Shown one piece after another: positions 10,343 through 39,848 of a DNA stretch of 42,042 nt. Source of the stretch: Escherichia phage Skarpretter; sequence record NC_048112.1. One strand, written 5' to 3'. Made by a program: the position numbers and the translations under genes. Below the pieces are notes generated by a model. It saw only the letters and a list, made by a program, of their open reading frames with translations, searched no databases and was not told where the DNA came from. Numbering within the stretch: position 1 is the first letter of the stretch; every line of letters starts with the position of its first letter.

Positions 10343-10346
10343 ATAA

Positions 10347-10372
10347 GGGGCCATAGCGGCCCCTTTTTTTTT
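10347..10372 (+). terminator. rho-independent terminator, likely bidirectional
   Basis: GGGGCC-atagc-GGCCCC followed by T9; lies between convergent HTH gene and tailspike gene. Confidence 0.8.
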
Positions 10373-12620
10373 ATGCCGGAGTAATGAAGGTGATCGGCTT
10401 GGTCGCGGCTAACTGAGTGCCCGCCGCCGTCGCCGTAGCGATAGGGTGAGCAATGTTAATGCGTACCGGGGAGGACGGCACGCCCTGCGAGGTGTTGTAA
10501 GGCCCACGCGTGATCCACGTCTGCAACGCTGCACCGCCAGCGCCAGCGCCCGGAATGGTGATACGGGTTCCCGGCGTTAACGGCTTGCCATACATCCACG
10601 GCGCGGAGGACTTGTTACCATCCCAATCTACGTTGCAATCAACGTAAGTGTTTCCCACGGTGGTTGCCTTGATCTGGAAATCAGCCGTTGCCGGAATGTA
10701 CGCCCCGGACACGGTGACACGGAAAAATTTTCCGTCCGCACGCTGCACCAGATCCCCGCGCTGAAACTCGCGCCCGGTAGGGAATGCGTTGCTGTCAAAG
10801 TTCGGGTAGTTCATTTCGTCCGGCGTCGGCATGGTGTAAATCTGGTTTACGTTCCCCACCTTCACACCGATCGAGCCGTCGATCCCGTTATACTGGCGCA
10901 TATCCGCGTACACGTTGGAGCCGATCGACGTGATGTTTGTATAGCTGCACTGGCTCCAGCCCTGATCCGCAAAGCCGTTTTCGTCGTAGAAATTCACGTT
11001 AATCATACGCAATACGGACTTACCACGGATAAAGCGCCCGTTTGACGTGGTGCCGCCTGCGGAGTCGTTGCCGATACAATCAAAAACGGTGCCCGTAATG
11101 TTGGACATGTTCAGCATTGACGCCACGCCAAAGAGCGTTAACTTGTAACAGCGGATATTTTCAAGGGTGTACGTGTTCGGCGTCACCATGATCCCGTTAC
11201 TGTCGGCGTTTGCTGCCACACCACAATAAACGCGGCCCTGTTTGGTGCTTACGTTGCGTACAACCATATCAAAGCACGGGTTAGACGGTGCGCCAGCGGT
11301 TACGCCCCACTCCAGCATAACAATACGCACATCATGAGGATCGGCGGTGGTTACTACTGGCTCGCCGTATACGCCGTCAATGGTGATCCGTTTGCAGCCG
11401 TAGGCGATCACGGTGGACATGGTAAGCCCGGTGCCGTTCGAAACGTTCTGGTTTGGGTCGCCGTGGATGTTCTCGATCGTACTGTCGCGGGTCACTTCCA
11501 GGTGTAGGATCTGGCGCACGCGGTTTGCAAAGACGTTGCGGATCGCAAAGTTTTTGGCGTATTGGCTGTCTGGAATATCCCAGCCGTAAGGCCCGGCCCC
11601 GGCGATACCGATCCCGATACCCCAGTTTGAGTTGGCGATCGGGGTTTGCCCGTTCACGTTCTCCATGTAGATCCCGTCAATGACGCAACCGTAATCAAAG
11701 TTGGCGTTAACTACGTTAAACTCCAGGCAATCGCCGCCCACATTGTAGAATGAAAGGTTACGGAATACGCCGCGCTGTACGTCGCCGCTACCCTGCATTA
11801 AGAAGCCGAACAAAGTATTTCGAAACTCGGTGTCGGTCAGTTCGAAAGAGTCGTTTGTAGTCGGTGAAGCCTGCGCCACGATCGAGCCTGCTTTAGACGC
11901 GGTTACTTCGCCGTCGATCAGGCAATCCCTGATCCGGTTGTTGCCACCCCAAAGCATGATGCGCAATTTATTGATGATCGCACCTTCTAACAGGATGTTG
12001 GTGATCCGCCAGTCTGCGGTGCCCTGCCAGGTGCCACCCTGGATCGTGATGCCGTCCGCCGTTACGGTGCTTTCAAGTGTGCCCGTCCAGCCATACGCAT
12101 AAACGATCTTTTTGTTGGCTTTGGCGTAATCAAACATGGCTTGAATTGCCGCGCTCGTGGTCGTGTACTCGTCGCGGCTGGTGAAATCCCACGGCGTAAC
12201 GAAACCTTGCAGGCGGGTTTTTAACGTGCCCTCGGTGGTGCCAACGTATTCCCAGCCCGTAGGGGATTGGATCACCTGCCACATTTGCGCCGCGTCGTAC
12301 TCTAACAGGTTGTCAAAGTAGTATTGCAACACGTTCTGGCGGTTATATACCGCCATGCTGCACCCGGTTTGAGTGACAAAGCGGCCTACGCTGCCCTGAT
12401 AAACAGGATAACCGGAGGCATTGATCTTGATCGGCTGCGGGATCGGGGTGAGGGTTAGATCCTCATTCTCCCAATACACTTGCACCTGGTTTGCTGGATC
12501 AACCGGGTTAGTGTCGGGCTTGCCGATATAAATATCACCGTCCGCAATAGCCGCGAATTTATCCACCTGGATAAACGGCGAGGACGGCATACGCACGGCG
12601 GCGTAAACGGTATCAACCAT
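10371..12620 (-). CDS. tailspike protein with P22-type head-binding N-terminal domain and beta-helix receptor-binding domain
   Basis: 749 aa; N-terminal ~110 aa aligns by eye with P22 gp9 head-binding domain (IYIGKPDTNPVDPANQVQVYWENED...SMAVYN vs P22 [25 protein letters not shown]...SMAIYD); remainder Gly/Asn/Thr-rich. Confidence 0.85.
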   Translation of the reverse strand: MVDTVYAAVRMPSSPFIQVDKFAAIADGDIYIGKPDTNPVDPANQVQVYWENEDLTLTPIPQPIKINASGYPVYQGSVGRFVTQTGCSMAVYNRQNVLQYYFDNLLEYDAAQMWQVIQSPTGWEYVGTTEGTLKTRLQGFVTPWDFTSRDEYTTTSAAIQAMFDYAKANKKIVYAYGWTGTLESTVTADGITIQGGTWQGTADWRITNILLEGAIINKLRIMLWGGNNRIRDCLIDGEVTASKAGSIVAQASPTTNDSFELTDTEFRNTLFGFLMQGSGDVQRGVFRNLSFYNVGGDCLEFNVVNANFDYGCVIDGIYMENVNGQTPIANSNWGIGIGIAGAGPYGWDIPDSQYAKNFAIRNVFANRVRQILHLEVTRDSTIENIHGDPNQNVSNGTGLTMSTVIAYGCKRITIDGVYGEPVVTTADPHDVRIVMLEWGVTAGAPSNPCFDMVVRNVSTKQGRVYCGVAANADSNGIMVTPNTYTLENIRCYKLTLFGVASMLNMSNITGTVFDCIGNDSAGGTTSNGRFIRGKSVLRMINVNFYDENGFADQGWSQCSYTNITSIGSNVYADMRQYNGIDGSIGVKVGNVNQIYTMPTPDEMNYPNFDSNAFPTGREFQRGDLVQRADGKFFRVTVSGAYIPATADFQIKATTVGNTYVDCNVDWDGNKSSAPWMYGKPLTPGTRITIPGAGAGGAALQTWITRGPYNTSQGVPSSPVRINIAHPIATATAAGTQLAATKPITFITPA

Positions 12621-12678: not shown

Positions 12679-12699
12679 TAAAAAAGGGGCCGTAGCCCC
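12679..12699 (-). terminator. rho-independent terminator after ejection-protein gene
   Basis: Minus strand GGGGC-tacg-GCCCC followed by TTTTTT. Confidence 0.7.
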
Positions 12700-12704
12700 T
12701 TCGT

Positions 12705-15638
12705 TTACTGCTGCCCCTGCGGTTGGCTCTCCTGCGCCTCCTGCGCGTCCTCCTGAGCCGCCGCGCTTAATGGGGTGGCTAACCATCCCATAAGCCCAAC
12801 GCGTGCCACGTTGGCCCGCTGGCGCGGTGTGAGCGATTCGATAAACTCACGGGCCGTTGGTGATTGGCTTAACACTCGCTCGGCGTCTGCCGGGGTGCCA
12901 CCTCTCGCCACGATGCGCACCGCCTGATTTAGTGCGCCGCTGCTCATGAATCGATCCGCCACTTCTATTGCCGCTGGGCGTGCTGCGTAGGCCTGGCGGG
13001 CAACCTCTGCCATGATGTTACCAGCGCCACCCGGTAACATGGTTGCGGCACCCTGTAGCGCCAGCGTACCCAGGCGAGTATTAAACAGGCGATCAAGCGC
13101 CTTATTGCTGCCGCCGCCTAAACGCTTGTCAATATCCGCGATCTTGCCCGTGGCTTTGAAGCCCTCCGCCTCACGGCGTGCCGCTGCGGTGATCTTGGCA
13201 AAGTTGGTTAAACGCTTGTTCACGTCCTCCGGTAAATACCGGGTTAACTCGCCCAACTTGCCACTATTGCGGGCCTCATTGTACCAGCGGGCAAAGCCTG
13301 CAACGTCCAGATCTGCCCCGGTACGTTGACCGCCTTTAAACGCCGCGCCTAATGCCTGGCGGGCAACGTCGCCGCGTAGGCTTTTCGGCGTCTTGTCCAT
13401 CAGTTCGCGGAAGCCTTTAGGATCGCCGCCCGGTGTGCCCAGCTTGCGCACCTCGCCGTAAATGCGATTGGTAACAGATTTTGGACTATCAAGATCTTTG
13501 CCCAGCACTGCACGCATACGGGTTTGAGCCGCTACCCAAAGTTGATTAAGGCGCTTGGCCTGCTGCCAGCGATCCGCCACGCCAAATTGCGCCGCAACCT
13601 GCCCTTGATCGTCGGTGAGGCGGCTGTAAAGCTGGCCCAACAAACGGCGCTCGTTGCTGCCCGTCTGGTAGTTGCTCATGGCGTCACCAACTTTACGGCG
13701 GAGATCGTCGAGTCGGTTAAACGTCGCCCCGCCTACCTTGTCGGATGTAGGCTGCAAACGCTCTAACGCCTCTTTCTCAAGCGGTAGCATCCATTGCTGG
13801 CCTACCTCGTCCGCACGCTGCCAAAGGTGGTTAAGCGAGTTATCAACGCTAACGGGCGTTGCTGGGGGGATCTGTTTCAGCGATTCGCTATACGCTTTCT
13901 CTTTCGCCGCACCCAATCGATCGATCACGTTCTTCGACGTACTGTTAAACGTACTGTCAAAGGTCATATCGTCAACTTTGCCGCCCATATCATCGATCAC
14001 TTTCGCGGCCTGATCCTGCAAAGCGCGGTACTGTTTGCCGAAAGCCTCTTGTGACAAAGTGCCGTCTTTGCTTCGGATGTTCGCCAGCACGTCACGCACC
14101 GATTTATTTTGCATAAACAGGCCCGGCGTGAGGTCGTCCGTGATCCCTAACTCGTCGGCGGCGCGTACCAGATCGGGATCAACGTCCGCACGGCGTGCCA
14201 GGTCAACGGCTGCGGTTGGCGCGGTAATATCGTCAACGGTGGTTGTTGCTGCGCCGGGGCGCTGCGCTGCTCGTGCTGCGTCGCCTACGTCCTGCGCTGC
14301 GCTGTTAACGGCGGTTGCTGCGTCGTCGGCTGCTCCGCCTGCCGCTGGTGCCGGGCGGATTGAATCAACGATGTTACGCACTGCCGGGGCTGCTGCGCGG
14401 GCACCTGCTGCGGCGAGGTTTACGGCACCCTCTGCCACTGGCCCCAGCGCTACACCGATCGCGGCTTTGTCCTCGTCGCCCCCGGAGGCTGCGATCGCGC
14501 CAGGAGTCGCACGGGCTGCTGGTGCGGCGATCCGGTTCTCAACAAATCCACCCAGGCGGGAAAGAATGCTGGCAACTTCGGGGCTTGCAGTTCCGGCAAG
14601 CTCTGCAAGCTCGCGGGCAATGGCTGGGGCACGCGCTGCGGCACCCGATCCGCCTGCTGGCAACGTGGCAAAGCCTGAGATCAGATCAGCGCCCAGGCGT
14701 GCGCCCTCGCTCATATCCTGATCGCCAGTGATGCCCGGAATGCCGCCACGCGGGATCGGGGTGTAGGTGCCGTCACCGATCCCCAATTCGTTTGCGAGCC
14801 ATGCCACGCCGCTTTGGGTCATGTTGGCGAGGTCGATCGGGATGTTTAAAACGTTGGTGCCAGCGCGGGCAAATCCCTTGCCCATATCTGCGAGATCTTC
14901 CCCTAACGTTGTTGGGGGCTGATAGTCAGCATATGGCGACGATTCCGCCCCGGCTGGTTGTGCGGCTGTAGCTGGCTGATCTCCCGTAGCAGTTTGCGCG
15001 GGATCGGCTTGCTGCGGCTCTGCTGGGGCTGCGTTTTCCTCTGCTCGCGCTGGGCTGTAGTCGCCAAACTGATCAAATACGTTACCGCCTGTTTTTGCAG
15101 CGGTGGCGTACTGAGTAGGGTTAGCTGAGTCAGCGCCGTTAGCGCCGCCATTAGTCCACTGGTCGAAACGAGAATCAACATAGTTTGCCCCCTCCGGGCC
15201 GGGTGTATAGCGTCCTTGTAGCATAGCATCAGTGTTGCCTGGGCCATCGTGATATGCTTGTAAAGCGAGACGCCAATCACCATAACGGTTGTACATTTGG
15301 GATAAGTATTGCGCGGAGGCGTCCGCCTGCATAGCAGGATTATTCCGTAACTCGTCTACGTTGTAGCCCATACCCTGCGCCGTGGCGGGCATAACTTGCC
15401 CCAGCCCGATCGCCCCTTTGCTGGAAACTGCACCAGGCTTGCCGCCTGATTCTTTGGACATAAGCGCGGACATTAAGCCCTGGGGAATGCCCCAACGCTG
15501 CCCGGCCTCCTCCATGATTGAGCCGTGATCGCTGCCGTCCGTGGTTGCTGGCGCTGGCTGGTTTGGTAGGGCGCTTACGCGCCCGCCCGGTGCTGCCGCT
15601 GCCACGTCCTGATCAAACTGATCAAATACGTTAGCCAT
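12705..15638 (-). CDS. internal virion/ejection protein with N-terminal lytic transglycosylase (SLT) domain (P22 gp16 position)
   Basis: 977 aa; SLT motifs SKESGGKPGAVS, GLGQVMP, AYHDGPG in first ~180 aa; long Ala/Gly-rich region; last of the ejection-protein series before tailspike. Confidence 0.75.
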   Translation of the reverse strand: MANVFDQFDQDVAAAAPGGRVSALPNQPAPATTDGSDHGSIMEEAGQRWGIPQGLMSALMSKESGGKPGAVSSKGAIGLGQVMPATAQGMGYNVDELRNNPAMQADASAQYLSQMYNRYGDWRLALQAYHDGPGNTDAMLQGRYTPGPEGANYVDSRFDQWTNGGANGADSANPTQYATAAKTGGNVFDQFGDYSPARAEENAAPAEPQQADPAQTATGDQPATAAQPAGAESSPYADYQPPTTLGEDLADMGKGFARAGTNVLNIPIDLANMTQSGVAWLANELGIGDGTYTPIPRGGIPGITGDQDMSEGARLGADLISGFATLPAGGSGAAARAPAIARELAELAGTASPEVASILSRLGGFVENRIAAPAARATPGAIAASGGDEDKAAIGVALGPVAEGAVNLAAAGARAAAPAVRNIVDSIRPAPAAGGAADDAATAVNSAAQDVGDAARAAQRPGAATTTVDDITAPTAAVDLARRADVDPDLVRAADELGITDDLTPGLFMQNKSVRDVLANIRSKDGTLSQEAFGKQYRALQDQAAKVIDDMGGKVDDMTFDSTFNSTSKNVIDRLGAAKEKAYSESLKQIPPATPVSVDNSLNHLWQRADEVGQQWMLPLEKEALERLQPTSDKVGGATFNRLDDLRRKVGDAMSNYQTGSNERRLLGQLYSRLTDDQGQVAAQFGVADRWQQAKRLNQLWVAAQTRMRAVLGKDLDSPKSVTNRIYGEVRKLGTPGGDPKGFRELMDKTPKSLRGDVARQALGAAFKGGQRTGADLDVAGFARWYNEARNSGKLGELTRYLPEDVNKRLTNFAKITAAARREAEGFKATGKIADIDKRLGGGSNKALDRLFNTRLGTLALQGAATMLPGGAGNIMAEVARQAYAARPAAIEVADRFMSSGALNQAVRIVARGGTPADAERVLSQSPTAREFIESLTPRQRANVARVGLMGWLATPLSAAAQEDAQEAQESQPQGQQ
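15066..15085 (-). repeat. 20-bp direct repeat (copy 2), encodes NVFDQF downstream of SLT domain
   Basis: caaactgatcaaatacgtta identical to 15614..15633; coordinates +/-1. Confidence 0.7.
15614..15633 (-). repeat. 20-bp direct repeat (copy 1), encodes NVFDQF at protein N-terminus
   Basis: Identical 20-mer ~549 bp upstream (in gene orientation) of copy 2; the two repeats are in the same reading frame. Confidence 0.7.
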
Positions 15639-16882
15639 TAAATCCCCTCCGGTAAGTAACCGTATTTAGCGCGGAATTGCTCTTTCGTCGCATTGTCCGG
15701 GTTTTTGCGGAGGTAGTCCAGCGCCTGTTGTGGCACGCCACGATCCGCCGCTTCTACTTCGGCCTGATACTGTGCGGCGCGTCCGCCCTGCGAGGAGGTT
15801 AAACCCTGCTGGCGGTCTGCCAGGAATCGTTGCCAGTTCGTAACGGCTTTGCGGATCTGCGCCGGGCTGCTGTTTTCATCCAGCGCCAAAAACGCTTTTT
15901 GATACGCTTCGCCCTCTGCGTTGGAGATCGCGCCGCTGCCTTTGGTCTGCTGGACTGCCAGCAAACGCGCCTGGCCCTGCATCTGCTGCACATCGCGCCA
16001 AAAGTCTTTTTCCGGGTTATTGCCGGGTAGGTTGCGGGCAATCGTGCCGCTAACACCCGTTGCACCTTCTAAAAGCTCCTGGGGCACCTGTAACAGCTTT
16101 TGCGCGTCCTGCATGTACTGGTTAAGGTTCCCGGCCTGCTGGTTGTAGTTCTGGAGAAAGTCGCGCTTTGTGTTCAGGCTGTCGCTCTGCGCTTTCTGCT
16201 GCTGCTGGATCAACTGCTGGCGCTTAATATCGTTGGTTTCCTGCGCGATCTGCGTATTCAGACGATCGTTAACGATGCCCAAATAACGGAGGTTGCGATC
16301 GGCACCTTTCGCGGCGGCGTCGAGATCCTGGCCCCGGATCGTGGTGTTGTTTTTCATCACCTCTTGCGCGTAGCCTAACTGATCCTTTGACGTGTTCGCG
16401 GCAAGGCTCACGGCGTCTACGGTCTGCTTGAACGCGTCCGGGTTCTGCTGGTACTGCTGCCACGCGTCGTTGGGGTCGATCCCCAACTGCTGCAACGCCG
16501 GGGCGCTCTGTTGCAGGAATTGGCCTACCGCCTGCGGCCCCTGCGAAAGCGCGATGTTTGCAGCGTTGGCAACCTGCGCCATTTGACCGGATTTAATATC
16601 ATCCATCAGGCCCAAACGCTCTTTTAACTCCCCGATCATCTGCGGGTGTTTGTACGCCAGATCGGACAACTTCGCCGGGTCGCCTGCTGCCGCCTGCCAA
16701 TCCTGGTTAAACTGCTGGCGCTGCATCTGCGCGGCCTGCGCCGCTTCCAACTGGCGCTGGTTGTTCTGCGTGGTCTGCTCGGCCTGCACGTTTGATAAGG
16801 CGTTGTTATACATCTGCTGGCCCGCTAACACCTGAGCGTTAACGGGGGCCATTACTGAGCCAAAATCAAAGATCTGTGCCAT
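15638..16882 (-). CDS. ejection/internal virion protein (P22 gp20 position)
   Basis: 414 aa, Gln/Asn/Ala-rich; position in P22-like gene order. Confidence 0.55.
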   Translation of the reverse strand: MAQIFDFGSVMAPVNAQVLAGQQMYNNALSNVQAEQTTQNNQRQLEAAQAAQMQRQQFNQDWQAAAGDPAKLSDLAYKHPQMIGELKERLGLMDDIKSGQMAQVANAANIALSQGPQAVGQFLQQSAPALQQLGIDPNDAWQQYQQNPDAFKQTVDAVSLAANTSKDQLGYAQEVMKNNTTIRGQDLDAAAKGADRNLRYLGIVNDRLNTQIAQETNDIKRQQLIQQQQKAQSDSLNTKRDFLQNYNQQAGNLNQYMQDAQKLLQVPQELLEGATGVSGTIARNLPGNNPEKDFWRDVQQMQGQARLLAVQQTKGSGAISNAEGEAYQKAFLALDENSSPAQIRKAVTNWQRFLADRQQGLTSSQGGRAAQYQAEVEAADRGVPQQALDYLRKNPDNATKEQFRAKYGYLPEGI

Positions 16883-17514
16883 TAGACTTGCCCCCCGCCA
16901 AACATGCCCGCAACGCCGTTACCAACACTCATGATCGAGTTAGCGCCCGTCTGCCACGGCAACGCCGCTTTAGCCGCTTTAACCTGGCCCTGGTTGCCGT
17001 ATAGCGTCGCTAACTGCTGGCCCTGCCCGGTGGCATAGCCCGCTAACTGGTTGGACGCCTGCAAGCCCATATTTGCCAGCCCGTACTGGTTGTTAAATTG
17101 CTGCTGCTGCTGGTTGTACATATCCGCCAGATAGTTTTGGCCCAACTGCGCGGTAATCGATCCCAGGCGGTTTTGCATGGTGCTTGATCCCAGGGTGCCC
17201 GTTGCCTCGGCGGACGCTAACGCCTGGCGGTTGGCCTGGTTGCTCATGGTTTGATATTCCGCGCCGCCGTAGTAATCCTGCAAAAGCTGGTTACGATCAA
17301 GCGGGTTGTTTGCAATATCCTGAGCGGACGCAAGCGCGGCGGTGCCGCCCTGAGTGTAAGGCGTTAACAGCGTGGAGGCGGTGTTATAACCTTCTCGCAC
17401 CGCGTCCTTTTGCTGGTTGATCGCCTTTTCTTGCTGGTTCATCGCCTTGTTAGCGCCGATCGATCCGACGATCCCGCCAACTGCGTTTGTAACGCCGCTA
17501 ATTACGCTCCCCAT
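16882..17514 (-). CDS. ejection/internal virion protein (P22 gp7 position)
   Basis: 210 aa, Gly/Gln/Asn-rich low-complexity protein; synteny. Confidence 0.5.
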   Translation of the reverse strand: MGSVISGVTNAVGGIVGSIGANKAMNQQEKAINQQKDAVREGYNTASTLLTPYTQGGTAALASAQDIANNPLDRNQLLQDYYGGAEYQTMSNQANRQALASAEATGTLGSSTMQNRLGSITAQLGQNYLADMYNQQQQQFNNQYGLANMGLQASNQLAGYATGQGQQLATLYGNQGQVKAAKAALPWQTGANSIMSVGNGVAGMFGGGQV

Positions 17515-20718: not shown

Positions 20719-20741
20719 TAAAAAAAGGGGCCGTAGCCCCT
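20719..20741 (-). terminator. rho-independent terminator after coat gene
   Basis: Minus strand GGGGC-tacg-GCCCC followed by T7. Confidence 0.75.
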
Positions 20742-20776
20742 TTATACACGAAACAATCAGGTTAATCACCTATGCC

Positions 20777-26428: not shown

Positions 26429-26478
26429 TCTCGGCGCTCCCCTTGTTGATTCTGGCAAAGTCTAACATGATGCGAAAA

Positions 26479-26522
26479 ATAGCACGAATTGCTAAAGCAT
26501 TTCACGTTAAAGTGATTATAGT
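26479..26522 (+). promoter_or_regulatory. conserved promoter element driving the 3-gene cassette
   Basis: ATAGCACgaatTGCTAAA, 22 nt, TATAGT, aatCTCACAttcac, ~35 nt before ATG at 26557. Confidence 0.6.
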
Positions 26523-26556
26523 AATCTCACATTCACGAACAAATGAGGGCTTTAAA

Positions 26557-27124: not shown

Positions 27125-27152
27125 AACAGGGGCCATTGCGGCCCCTTTTGCG
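27125..27152 (+). terminator. rho-independent terminator (bidirectional position)
   Basis: GGGGCC-attgc-GGCCCC followed by TTTTG; between convergent cassette and terL 3' end. Confidence 0.7.
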
Positions 27153-35061: not shown

Positions 35062-35074
35062 AAGTTTTGTGTGA

Positions 35075-35118
35075 ATAGCACGAATTGCTAAAACAGCTTT
35101 ATGAATACTATGTATAGT
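35075..35118 (+). promoter_or_regulatory. conserved promoter element driving plus-strand island
   Basis: ATAGCACgaatTGCTAAA, 22 nt, TATAGT, tatCTCACAccaac, 32 nt before ATG at 35151. Confidence 0.6.
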
Positions 35119-35150
35119 TATCTCACACCAACGAATTGAGGCAAAACAAA

Positions 35151-35696: not shown

Positions 35697-35710
35697 CTCC
35701 GGGGCGGCGA

Positions 35711-35754
35711 ATAGCACGAATTGCTAAACGCCGCGTCTAAATACTATGTATAGT
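35711..35754 (+). promoter_or_regulatory. conserved promoter element
   Basis: ATAGCACgaatTGCTAAA, 22 nt, TATAGT, tatCTCACAccaac, before ATG 35788. Confidence 0.6.
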
Positions 35755-35787
35755 TATCTCACACCAACAAACAACGGAGTAAACGAA

Positions 35788-36887: not shown

Positions 36888-36927
36888 CACTTTTTGCTAA
36901 ACGCTCCTCGTAAATACTTGGTATAGT
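36884..36927 (+). promoter_or_regulatory. conserved promoter element
   Basis: ATAGCACttttTGCTAAA, 22 nt, TATAGT, tctTTCACAccaac, before ATG 36959. Confidence 0.6.
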
Positions 36928-36958
36928 TCTTTCACACCAACACGAGGAGCGAAACAAA

Positions 36959-39282: not shown

Positions 39283-39833
39283 TGTGGGGCGCGATCCTGG
39301 CCCTCCTGCGCCGATACTGGAAGCCGATCGCCGTAATCCTCCTCGTGCTGCTGGCGCTGGGGGGATCTTACCTTAAAGGCTCGGCTGATAAGGATCAGGA
39401 ATGGCAAGCGCGATGGACACAACGCGATCTGGACGATTCCACCCAGAAAGGGATCGATAATGTAGCCGCCCGGATAATTGAACAAGGCCGGGCCATTGAA
39501 CGCCAGGAGGCGATCGAGGATGCACAAAAACGGGAAGCCGCCGCGCTGGCTGCTGCTGATCGGTTGCGTGGTACTGTTGACGGCCTGCAACAACTCGCCA
39601 ACAAATACGCGGCCCAACTGGACGCCCAGCGGGCAACCACTGATCTTGCCGCTGCCGTCGCAAGCAAAACAAAAGCCCAGGGGGCCGGAGTGCTCGCCGT
39701 CATGCTCGGAAGCGTTGCAAAGGAAGCTGAATATTATGCTAAACGATCTGACGAAAGCTACGACGCCGGGCTAACCTGCGAGCGGCTTTACGAGTCGGTG
39801 AGGGTGACGCAAGAAAAAGTCAAGGGGCCATAA
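39282..39833 (+). CDS. Rz: i-spanin (Rz-like)
   Basis: 183 aa; N-terminal TM helix, periplasmic coiled-coil; TAATG coupling with R. Confidence 0.7.
   Translation: MWGAILALLRRYWKPIAVILLVLLALGGSYLKGSADKDQEWQARWTQRDLDDSTQKGIDNVAARIIEQGRAIERQEAIEDAQKREAAALAAADRLRGTVDGLQQLANKYAAQLDAQRATTDLAAAVASKTKAQGAGVLAVMLGSVAKEAEYYAKRSDESYDAGLTCERLYESVRVTQEKVKGP
39520..39774 (+). CDS. Rz1: o-spanin (Rz1-like) lipoprotein embedded in +1 frame of Rz
   Basis: ~84 aa from internal ATG; signal peptide with lipobox (LIGC / LTAC), Pro-rich mature region. Confidence 0.55.
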   Translation: MHKNGKPPRWLLLIGCVVLLTACNNSPTNTRPNWTPSGQPLILPLPSQAKQKPRGPECSPSCSEALQRKLNIMLNDLTKATTPG

Positions 39834-39848
39834 CGGCCCCTTTTTTTA
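39822..39848 (+). terminator. rho-independent terminator (bidirectional position)
   Basis: GGGGCC-ataac-GGCCCC followed by T7; between Rz and convergent Ig-like gene. Confidence 0.8.

Follow-up and report, generated by a model that had tools for sequence, protein, structure and literature searches.

A conserved pair of NxFDQF motifs, a candidate docking signal, frames the lytic transglycosylase domain in the gp16-position ejection protein of phage Skarpretter

The gene for the largest ejection protein of Escherichia phage Skarpretter (NC_048112.1; the whole stretch of 42,042 nucleotides that was analysed is here called the window) contains two exact 20-bp direct repeats, one on either side of the sequence encoding a lytic transglycosylase (SLT) domain. 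It is probable, at roughly 0.6, that these repeats reflect a paired short linear docking motif, with the SLT domain carried as cargo in the spacer between the copies and the identity of the copies at the DNA level being incidental. The repeat would then be the nucleotide footprint of an obligatorily paired peptide, N-x-F-(D/A)-Q-(F/Y), that appears to mark the third (gp16-position) ejection protein near its N-terminus in many short-tailed phages. A preliminary description of this DNA had proposed a recombination device; that the pair is instead a conserved peptide motif is very likely.

There are two exact matches to CAAACTGATCAAATACGTTA in the window, at 15065-15084 and 15614-15633 on the plus strand; allowing three mismatches adds no further match, and none of 100 dinucleotide shuffles of the window yielded one. 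On the coding strand both copies read xxT AAC GTA TTT GAT CAG TTT G and encode NVFDQF in frame, at residues 3-8 and 186-191 of a 977-aa ORF, with a repeat-to-repeat spacing of 549 bp or 183 codons. The identity covers exactly 20 nt and ends at both sides, the 23 nt that flank the repeats being loosely alike (74% over 43 nt). The pair is the sole exact coding repeat of at least 20 nt in the window, where the remaining long repeats are hairpins between genes and elements that resemble promoters. The two matches, the ORF and a Pfam match to residues 42-143 thus bear out the preliminary description in placing exact, in-frame copies around an SLT domain; the start that it gave as 15066 is one base off, the copy beginning at 15065. 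The features concerned are as follows.

12705-15638, minus strand: gene for the gp16-position ejection (DNA-transfer) protein, 977 aa long with the SLT domain at its N-terminus, from the ORF and homology
15614-15633 (codons 15615-15632), minus strand: DNA repeat copy 1, motif N3-V-F-D-Q-F8, from sequence matching
15609-15626, minus strand: 9-bp tandem of two CTGATCAAA units (coding strand, two TTTGATCAG units, FDQFDQ) that overlaps copy 1, from the sequence
15144-15527, minus strand: SLT lytic transglycosylase domain, residues ~38-165, from Pfam, AF2 and Foldseek
15065-15084 (codons 15066-15083), minus strand: DNA repeat copy 2, motif N186-V-F-D-Q-F191, from sequence matching
14202-15065, minus strand: low-complexity A/P/Q/G-rich region, residues 192 to ~479, mostly predicted with low confidence by AF2
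12729-14201, minus strand: helical gp16-like body, residues ~480-970, from AF2 and gp16 homology
15638-16882, minus strand: gp20-like ejection protein (Inj_translocase), from Pfam and PHROG
16882-17514, minus strand: gp7-like ejection protein, from Pfam P22_gp7 and phrog_598 ('DNA ejection')

Judged from gene order and from homology of its body, the 977-aa protein is the P22-like gp16-position ejection protein. The genes run in the order tail needle, gp7, gp20, gp16, tailspike, which is identical in sister contigs, and those nearby also include a gp10-like gene and a tailspike gene with a P22 head-binding domain (Pfam, PHROG); given the gp7-like, gp20-like, gp10-like and tailspike neighbours, the label of ejection protein is correct. 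The gp20-like and SLT-gp16 genes overlap stop to start (TAATG), and the last gp20-like codons, CCG GAG GGG (plus strand 15644-15652), provide a GGAGG Shine-Dalgarno sequence for SLT-gp16. The P22-type gp16 proteins (phrog_770; P22, epsilon34, CUS-3 and HK620) occupy the same slot, after the gp7-like and gp20-like genes and before the tailspike, and have a helical C-terminal body homologous to that of the Skarpretter protein, but their small N-terminal domain is a different one (MKVTANGKTFTFPDG...), without SLT and without the NxFDQF pair. In tblastn searches, the body matches gp16 of epsilon34, CUS-3 and SEN22 (E 4e-9 to 2e-8, residues 492-853), and P22-like gp16 proteins match query residues 491-955; with phmmer, it matches a protein with a P22-type N-terminus (P0122) at an E value of 4.9e-59. 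The gp16 of epsilon34 begins MMKVTANGKTFTFPDG and gives no SLT match, consistent with the earlier statement that P22-type gp16 lacks this domain. The full-length protein matches phrog_6704, and searches of solved structures and Pfam matched the SLT domain alone and found nothing for the body, for which AF2 predictions have block-mean pLDDT values mostly of 64-93 (residues ~481-830) and of ~52-85 (residues 881-970); values fall below 50 at residues 166-271 and 296-483. No nucleotide-level match to the SLT-gp16 gene was found in the phage collection; elsewhere in the genome, similarity to C130_2 and STP9, at ~74% identity, is limited to the head genes.

The sequence and the predicted structure together identify the SLT domain (PF01464, 75.8 bits against a cutoff of 21.3) as a family-1 lytic transglycosylase with a goose-lysozyme-like fold that looks active. 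Catalytic-type motifs are present as E63-S64, GLGQV and AYHDGPG (S64 and the full GLGQV being read from the sequence); E63 does not vary among 57 homologs, and neither of the alignments made, A1 and A2, shows any variation at G78 or A128-Y-H-D-G-P133, which includes Y129 and H130. The fold is predicted with confidence (AF2 pLDDT ~86-96 through most of residues 41-160) and the Foldseek matches to the model include Slt, MltE, MltF and T7 gp16-N (7k5c_B), with the N-terminal ~200 residues superposing over 207 columns on T7 gp16-N of the ejectosome tunnel complex. In T7 gp16-N, residues 1-156 form the LT domain and residues 157-228 a 'molecular tape' that binds gp15 (PMC8954989). The arrangement in T7 gp16, also the largest ejection protein, is alike in having an LT domain at the N-terminus and then an extended segment that binds a partner, although sequence homology is undetectable outside the LT fold. 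Fusions of SLT with a gp16-like body and two motifs are likewise encoded by the annotated P22-like phages Sf101, IME10, IME_EC2, Lumpael, Sortsne and C130_2, at 29-51% identity to the Skarpretter protein, the Sf101/IME10 type having its motifs after the SLT; the annotations fetched for these fusions ('transglycosylase' or 'DNA transfer protein') do not mention the motif pair.

The null hypothesis set out in the preliminary description, a coincidental duplication absent from homologs, is contradicted by conservation of the pair, as homologs at ~31-95% identity to the Skarpretter protein retain N-x-F-(D/A)-Q-(F/Y) at both positions. N186 is invariant and F5 at least 90% conserved in alignment A1, conservation in A2 reaches 90% or more at N186, F188 and Q190, and the linkers around the motifs vary freely. 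FDQFDQ, encoded by the 9-bp tandem, is also kept as a peptide in Murrayvirus and Sortsnevirus homologs. Of the 61 distinct proteins with the motif at the start, every one has another copy within 320 residues, for which the chance expectation is ~4% each, and the spacing is bimodal, with 18 of the 61 having copies separated by 60 residues or fewer and no SLT, and 43 having copies at least 150 residues apart with an SLT between them. In related loci totalling 680 kb, no gene but SLT-gp16 has the strict motif, with exactly two copies at 38 of the 39 loci, and there is no instance elsewhere in the window, the gp7-like and gp20-like proteins included. The gp20-like protein has an N-terminus, MAQIFDFG, with a weak likeness to the motif. 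A 41-aa query of a set of 5.8 billion proteins returned one candidate only, too little to gauge how widely the motif is spread, and searching the open-access literature for the motif strings returned no relevant paper. The two copies also vary together, with variants that match within each protein (NFFDQF/NFFDQF, NPFAQF/NPFAQF, NMFAEF/NMFAEF, NMFAKY/NMFGQY, MFKGL/MFAGN), copies 1 and 2 of the same genome being closer to each other than pairs drawn from different genomes (permutation p ~0.005).

In the AF2 model, both motifs sit in disordered linkers beside the confidently predicted SLT fold. Motif 1 is within a low-pLDDT N-terminal tail, with a predicted helix at residues 3-14, and motif 2 has a pLDDT of ~30 and a short predicted helix at residues 187-190; pLDDT values are below 50 for residues 1-7, 12-34 and 166-271, and AF2 assigns no confident conformation to either motif. 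A short island of conservation in disordered sequence, portable between different neighbours and spacings, is the hallmark of a short linear motif, and on the sequences and the model this is what the pair appears to be.

Relatives differ in where the SLT is located, which may be between the motif copies, ahead of both, or missing. In the SLT-less protein of locus L080 both copies are present, as MANVFDQFD and GNLFDQFDD separated by 20 residues, and IMG/VR proteins of 418 to >1212 residues, with differing bodies, begin with MANVFDQFD, followed by a spacer of 4-39 residues and N(V/I/L/P)FDQFD. A subset of these short-spacer proteins is assigned to PHROG families for 'DNA transfer' or 'DNA ejection'. 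Where flanks were examined, the short-spacer gene is always the last in a run of consecutive, tightly abutting genes, which in L080, L083 and L100 include gp7-like and gp20-like genes, and in several of the short-spacer loci a fibre- or spike-like gene comes next. In the Sf101/IME10-type layout, the SLT is followed by a tandem of two NPFAQ(I/L)E sequences. The interval between the copies can be as short as a 4-residue spacer or as long as a 177-residue enzyme-bearing segment. Two candidates from Kosakonia phages were set aside as evidence for separable modules: an apparent natural gene split in Kc237 is due to a mis-called start, the ORF being 1044 aa in full and beginning GTG-ANVFDQFEQ, and Kc166B appears to be a frameshift.

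These layouts bear on two other origins for the pair. As the repeats lie on either side of the SLT module, with copy 1 directly next to the start codon, the repeat might have arisen as a target or junction duplication when the SLT entered an ancestral gp16 gene, but SLT-less proteins already have two copies, 4-39 residues apart, and in the Sf101 type both copies are on one side of the SLT. These observations make such a scar very improbable and, together, imply that the motif pair predates the SLT insertion and does not depend on it. The motifs also flank an enzymatic domain in linkers that are exposed and disordered in the AF2 model, as would be expected of cleavage or recognition sites at which the SLT is released during maturation or after ejection; the pair is, however, also present with a short spacer, where there is nothing to release, and P22-like phages are not known to have a maturation protease, so that processing is an improbable function. 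We favour an ancestral layout consisting of two copies of the docking motif and a short disordered spacer, within which the SLT would have been placed as cargo in Skarpretter and its relatives.

The preliminary description had regarded the 20-bp repeats as a substrate for recombination that would excise the SLT precisely, so that this module would be phase-variable or easily swapped. The arithmetic is correct: the repeats are exact and in frame, 549 bp is 183 codons, and a crossover would give an in-frame product of 794 aa that begins MANVFDQFGDYSPA. Phage and host recombination systems can generate low-frequency deletions between short direct repeats, the SLT is dispensable in some relatives, and the same repeat DNA is common to most of the clade (L064, L065, L066 and L068). 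In other clades, however, the DNA identity is lost, with 2-5 of 18 bases differing between the copies, while the peptide pair is kept, and all 61 motif-initiated proteins have two copies. No single-copy deletion product was present among 266 related proteins or these 61, and the comparison with SLT-less homologs that had been suggested as a check revealed a tandem two-copy motif, never the one copy expected after a crossover. A junction-capable search pattern, ATGGCTAACGTATTTGATCARTTTG, had 0 matches in the assemblies of metagenome and genome collections, and the one viral match to it is not a deletion product, so that none of three DNA collections contains the junction. Nucleotide identity to sister genomes is 0.8-0.9 across both repeats and falls only near residue 400; a mosaic breakpoint after motif 2, hinted at by a coarse comparison, was removed by a sliding-window comparison, in which this level of identity continues to ~residue 400. 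Deletion between direct repeats would, moreover, be irreversible and so would not constitute phase variation. The SLT is a module in the evolutionary sense, as its varied placement in relatives attests, but with two copies always retained there is no sign of a phase switch, and a deletion substrate is a most unlikely explanation for the repeats.

Whether the copies exchange sequence without crossing over is a more serious question. Their DNA is the same in the window, L064, L065, L066 and L068 and one base apart in L067, which amounts to identity in four of the five distinct genomes of the clade examined (L064 and L065 have the same allele), whereas from codon usage the chance that two independent NVFDQF copies agree at all six codons is ~0.02. 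Concerted evolution by non-crossover gene conversion, with or without a shared binding partner, would account both for this identity and for the co-variation of the copies. Synonymous codon identity is 0.58 within genomes and 0.46 between them (p = 0.003), and in several genomes the Gln codons are CAA/CAA or CAG/CAG. An excess of this kind within genomes is, however, expected from shared GC content and codon bias, and the copy identity in the sister genomes, which have local nucleotide identities of 0.87-0.94, can have been inherited from one ancestor. Most genomes also have fixed synonymous differences, Asn outside the clade of the window being usually encoded by AAC in copy 1 but by AAT in copy 2, with Phe, Asp and Val codons differing as well, and this argues against frequent conversion. 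As the copies differ at synonymous sites outside this clade, conservation is at the peptide level. Gene conversion was rejected as the main cause and retained as a secondary possibility at most, the permutation tests being nominally significant but confounded by genome codon bias and the fixed AAC/AAT difference; as a general explanation for the pair we consider concerted evolution unlikely, with perhaps one chance in a few. The exact DNA identity within the clade is best read as incidental, the result of shared codon preference and chance, or of an old conversion event.

In the paired docking motif that we favour, each copy would form a short amphipathic helix, aromatic on one face, on a flexible linker, and we infer that it docks to some partner. 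The two copies would most plausibly act jointly, in bivalent docking to a single oligomeric partner, a role to which we assign a little under an even chance. One candidate partner, suggested by the T7 gp16 'molecular tape', is the gp20-like tunnel through the periplasm in the assembled ejectosome, which would give motif 2 a tape-like role; the other is the scaffold or portal inside the procapsid, while the ejection proteins are loaded. In phage T4, a capsid targeting sequence of ~10 N-terminal residues, aromatic and acidic in character, is present on internal proteins that are packed and then injected, and tolerates a variety of cargo. The T4 tag is single and is cut off by the prohead protease, whereas the NxFDQF motif is paired, can be internal and implicates no protease. 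Other gp16-like proteins have pairs with different sequences (GPWEKYQ twice, LP(E/A)GFVLD twice, DPF... twice, NLFEGE/NLFAGE), likewise short, aromatic and acidic and located in a disordered N-terminus with or without an SLT. More tentatively, and with some doubt, the pair may be a portable bivalent signal, previously unrecognised, that in a wide range of short-tailed phages recruits the largest ejection protein, and any cargo domain located between the copies or next to them, such as the SLT, to the procapsid or the trans-envelope ejectosome; its copies would co-evolve because the sites that they occupy on a single oligomeric partner are equivalent. Their co-variation could, against this, stem from gene conversion instead of a shared binding site, and the DNA-level identity in the clade, given how rarely it would occur by chance, may reflect some process at the level of DNA.

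For the recombination switch originally proposed the outcome is negative, with no evidence of a switch in the data examined. According to a recent review, the ejection proteins of P22-like phages are without transglycosylase activity (PMC8954989), a statement that the SLT domain predicted here from sequence on P22-like ejection proteins would correct. How the three proteins of P22-like phages are loaded into the head and then reassembled into a conduit across the envelope is still poorly understood, and ejection proteins are invisible in virion reconstructions (bioRxiv 10.1101/2025.06.11.659172). A strictly paired and highly specific motif offers a handle on this process for mutagenesis, pull-downs and the modelling of complexes and, should it prove to be a targeting or assembly signal, could serve to bring foreign cargo into phage heads.

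Across the 42,042 bases of the window, the 20-mer CAAACTGATCAAATACGTTA has two exact matches (15065-15084 and 15614-15633), and the two identical in-frame repeats around a lytic transglycosylase (SLT) domain reported in the preliminary description were borne out by exact search, ORF translation and Pfam, with the start coordinate corrected by one base. No third copy is present in the window with up to 3 mismatches allowed, the 20-mer occurred in 0 of 100 dinucleotide shuffles of the window, and no second pair of coding sequences in the window repeats exactly and in frame over 20 nt. The identity is exact over 20 nt and stops abruptly at either end, and the copies are offset by 549 bp (183 codons).

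12705..15638, minus strand: ORF of 977 aa (SLT-gp16) with both repeat copies
10371-12620: tailspike gene, with a P22 head-binding domain

The coding strand of each copy reads xxT AAC GTA TTT GAT CAG TTT G and encodes NVFDQF, at residues 3-8 (copy 1) and 186-191 (copy 2), with the SLT domain between them at residues 42-143 (75.8 bits in Pfam versus a cutoff of 21.3). From its neighbours, which are P22 gp7-like, gp20-like and gp10-like genes and the tailspike gene, the 977-aa product is identified as the ejection protein at the gp16 position in a P22-like podophage. No close relative of the phage has been sequenced; this gene has no nucleotide-level match in the phage collection, and in the rest of the genome similarity to C130_2 and STP9 is confined to the head genes, at ~74% identity.

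Every full-length homolog with an N-terminal extension ahead of SLT, among 120 homologs collected, has the motif at both positions. Both copies are kept at 52-95% identity in the window's clade, at ~35-39% in the Murrayvirus, Sortsnevirus, Lumpael and IME_EC2 group, and at ~31-35% in remoter proteins. N186 is invariant in one alignment (A1), conservation is at least 90% for F5 in A1 and for N186, F188 and Q190 in a second (A2), and the linkers around these residues vary freely in both. The copies co-vary within one protein (NVFDQF/NVFDQF, NFFDQF/NFFDQF, NPFAQF/NPFAQF, NMFAEF/NMFAEF, NMFAKY/NMFGQY, NMFAQY/NLFAEY, MFKGL/MFAGN, FNFAATF/NKFASQF). In Sf101/IME10-type proteins, SLT is at the very start and two tandem copies lie behind it (DPNNPFAQLE, ~14-15 aa, DPNNPFAQIE). 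Judged from these alignments, the 20-bp repeat is an ancient peptide motif. We put at about 90% the probability that it is a peptide motif conserved as a pair and does not serve as a device for recombination. Two homologous genes have irregular annotations:

L073 450-3584: Kosakonia phage Kc237 gene, an intact 1044-aa ORF beginning GTG-ANVFDQFEQ
L075 399-3549: Kc166B gene, two CDSs

The deposited annotation of Kc237 places the gene start ~300 codons too late, and the split in Kc166B looks like a frameshift past ~residue 300.

As DNA, copy 1 and copy 2 are the same in the window and in the clade members L064, L065, L066 and L068; L067 has a single mismatch between them, and in L069 they are divergent. 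In other clades they differ at 2-5 of 18 bases, most genomes using AAC for Asn in copy 1 and AAT for it in copy 2, and so it is the peptide that is conserved. At the codon usage of this genome, all six codons would coincide between two independent NVFDQF copies with a probability of ~0.02, which makes the exact identity seen here mildly unusual. Codon identity between copies is higher within than between genomes (0.58 versus 0.46, p = 0.003; 0.55 versus 0.45, p = 0.01, with the window's clade left out), as expected were gene conversion contributing to the DNA identity, but differences among the genomes in GC content and codon bias make this weak evidence. At either repeat, the window and the sister genomes have a local nucleotide identity of 0.87-0.94, and their identical copies can therefore come from one ancestor. 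A contribution from gene conversion to the DNA identity is judged unlikely.

Recombination between the repeats had been proposed to delete SLT in frame, making it a swappable or phase-variable module. An impression from a coarse comparison, that similarity breaks just past motif copy 2, was ruled out by sliding-window identity, which is 0.8-0.9 to L066-L068 over both repeats and drops only near residue 400. An exhaustive phmmer search of 1.84 billion representative proteins with the body (residues 186-977) returned 551 relatives, many without SLT, whose N-termini include the P22-type MKVTANGKTFTFPDG, paired GPWEKYQ and paired LPxGFVLD; the predicted deletion product, MANVFDQFG..., is absent among them. 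A DNA pattern that fits a wild-type start or a deletion junction alike had 0 matches in metagenome and genome collections and one in IMG/VR, locus L079/L080. Its 677-aa protein, with a body matching phrog_770 'DNA transfer protein' (E 1e-68), lacks SLT but has MANVFDQFD, 20 aa and then GNLFDQFDD, and so keeps both copies where deletion predicts one. With neither breakpoint, deletion product nor junction in the databases searched, a deletion switch is very improbable; SLT is modular on an evolutionary timescale, without evidence of repeat-mediated deletion or phase variation.

With L079 as bait, IMG/VR yielded at least 20 proteins, from 418 to more than 1212 aa long, that start MANVFDQFD and differ in their bodies, some being PHROG 'DNA ejection' or 'DNA transfer' proteins. 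A second copy, N(V/I/L/P)FDQFD, lies 11-46 residues downstream of the first (spacer 4-39 aa). In every locus with flanks examined, the tag gene closes a series of successive genes packed tightly end to end; the two genes ahead of it are gp7-like and gp20-like in size in L080, L083 and L100, and a fibre- or spike-like gene follows in several loci. All 61 distinct motif-initiated proteins have a second copy within 320 aa (chance ~4% each), and the spacing is bimodal, at most 60 aa in 18 proteins without SLT and at least 150 aa in 43 with SLT between. Six-frame translation of 680 kb of related loci confined the strict motif to this gene, exactly twice in 38 of 39 loci, and it is found nowhere else in the window. 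On this distribution, the pair appears as a widespread, specific N-terminal tag. In the simplest history, the tandem pair would be ancestral, with SLT later inserted into its spacer in this lineage and put upstream of it in the Sf101 type; that the repeat is instead a scar made by SLT insertion has very little probability.

Other gp16-like proteins (P0129-P0257; L078 1790-2500) have different paired N-terminal aromatic/acidic motifs (GPWEKYQ x2, LP(E/A)GFVLD x2, IDPFDT x3, WWEE x2, NLFEGE/NLFAGE), some with SLT behind them, and having short motifs in pairs appears to be a general feature of the N-terminus in this family. A third FDQ(W), in RFDQWT (window 15156-15167, aa 158-161), lies in the conserved last SLT helix; R157 and F158 do not vary, a BLAST alignment sets it against the first motif copy of SLT-less L080, and it could be a coincidence or an old copy absorbed into the SLT domain.

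An AlphaFold2 model built on a 57-sequence alignment is confident for SLT (pLDDT ~86-96 over most of residues 41-160) and largely so for the helical body (block means mostly 64-93 at ~481-830 and ~52-85 at 881-970). Residues 1-7, 12-34, 166-271 and most of the stretch up to 483 fall below 50, with short helices predicted at 3-14 and 187-190. The motifs are therefore predicted to be conserved islands in disordered linkers, undocked within the same chain, as is characteristic of short linear interaction motifs. In Foldseek, the SLT domain matches Slt, MltE and MltF, and 207 columns align with T7 gp16-N from the structure of the ejectosome tunnel complex (7k5c_B). Catalytic-type motifs (E63-S64, GLGQV, AYHDGPG) are present and E63, G78 and A128-P133 are invariant in the alignments; the enzyme is probably active. 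In T7 gp16, residues 157-228, behind the LT domain, are the 'molecular tape' that binds gp15 (PMC8954989).

Several further elements were located around this gene and elsewhere in the window:

15636-15652: end of the gp20-like gene and start of SLT-gp16 (...KYGYLPEGI*, the stop overlapping the next start, TAATG)
26478-26539, 35074-35135, 35710-35771, 36913-36944: ~60-bp element (AATAGCACGAATTGCTAAAGCA ... AATACTATGTATAGTTATCTCACACCAACGAA)
12680-12701, 20721-20742, also 10345-10370, 27127-27152, 39822-39847: GC-rich hairpins with A or T runs (AAAAAAGGGGCCGTAGCCCCTT; AAGGGGCCATAGCGGCCCCTTTTTTT)

The last codons of the gp20-like gene, CCG GAG GGG, form the GGAGG ribosome-binding site of SLT-gp16, and even very distant phages (Kc237, L079) keep KYG(Y/F)(L/I)PEG at the C-terminus of the gp20-like protein, perhaps owing to this dual use. 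The gp20-like protein (15638-16882) starts MA(Q/E)(I/L)FDFG in the window's clade (L064, L066-L068), with a faint likeness to NVFDQFG; gp20-like N-termini of other clades are unrelated. The homologous tailspike gene of sister contigs has a WcaM (colanic-acid-related) domain, and L068 has a GDSL-lipase-type tailspike in its place, which suggests receptor-module swapping within the clade. The ~60-bp element is present in three to four copies that are 78-97% identical and looks like a repeated promoter or operator. The hairpins, identical or near-identical in sequence, are probably intrinsic terminators, possibly bidirectional; one sits between the SLT-gp16 and tailspike genes.

The fusion of SLT to gp16 is in itself known, being annotated in Sf101, IME10, IME_EC2, Lumpael, Sortsne and C130_2. 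The paired motif was found neither in the open-access literature nor in the record annotations of the relatives fetched, and appears to be undescribed so far. It is strictly paired, co-varying, portable and conserved as a peptide, is placed by the model in disordered linkers of gp16-position ejection proteins, and has SLT as cargo within its spacer. That the motifs are processing sites freeing SLT is quite improbable. The two copies may instead be bivalent docking sites for one oligomeric partner, a tentative reading to which we give slightly less than even odds. Candidate partners would be the gp20-like periplasmic tunnel once ejection has taken place, as the T7 case suggests by analogy, or the inside of the procapsid while it is being loaded, for which capsid-targeting tags may offer a parallel. 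The interest of this ejection protein lies in its conserved motif pair, not in the deletion originally claimed.
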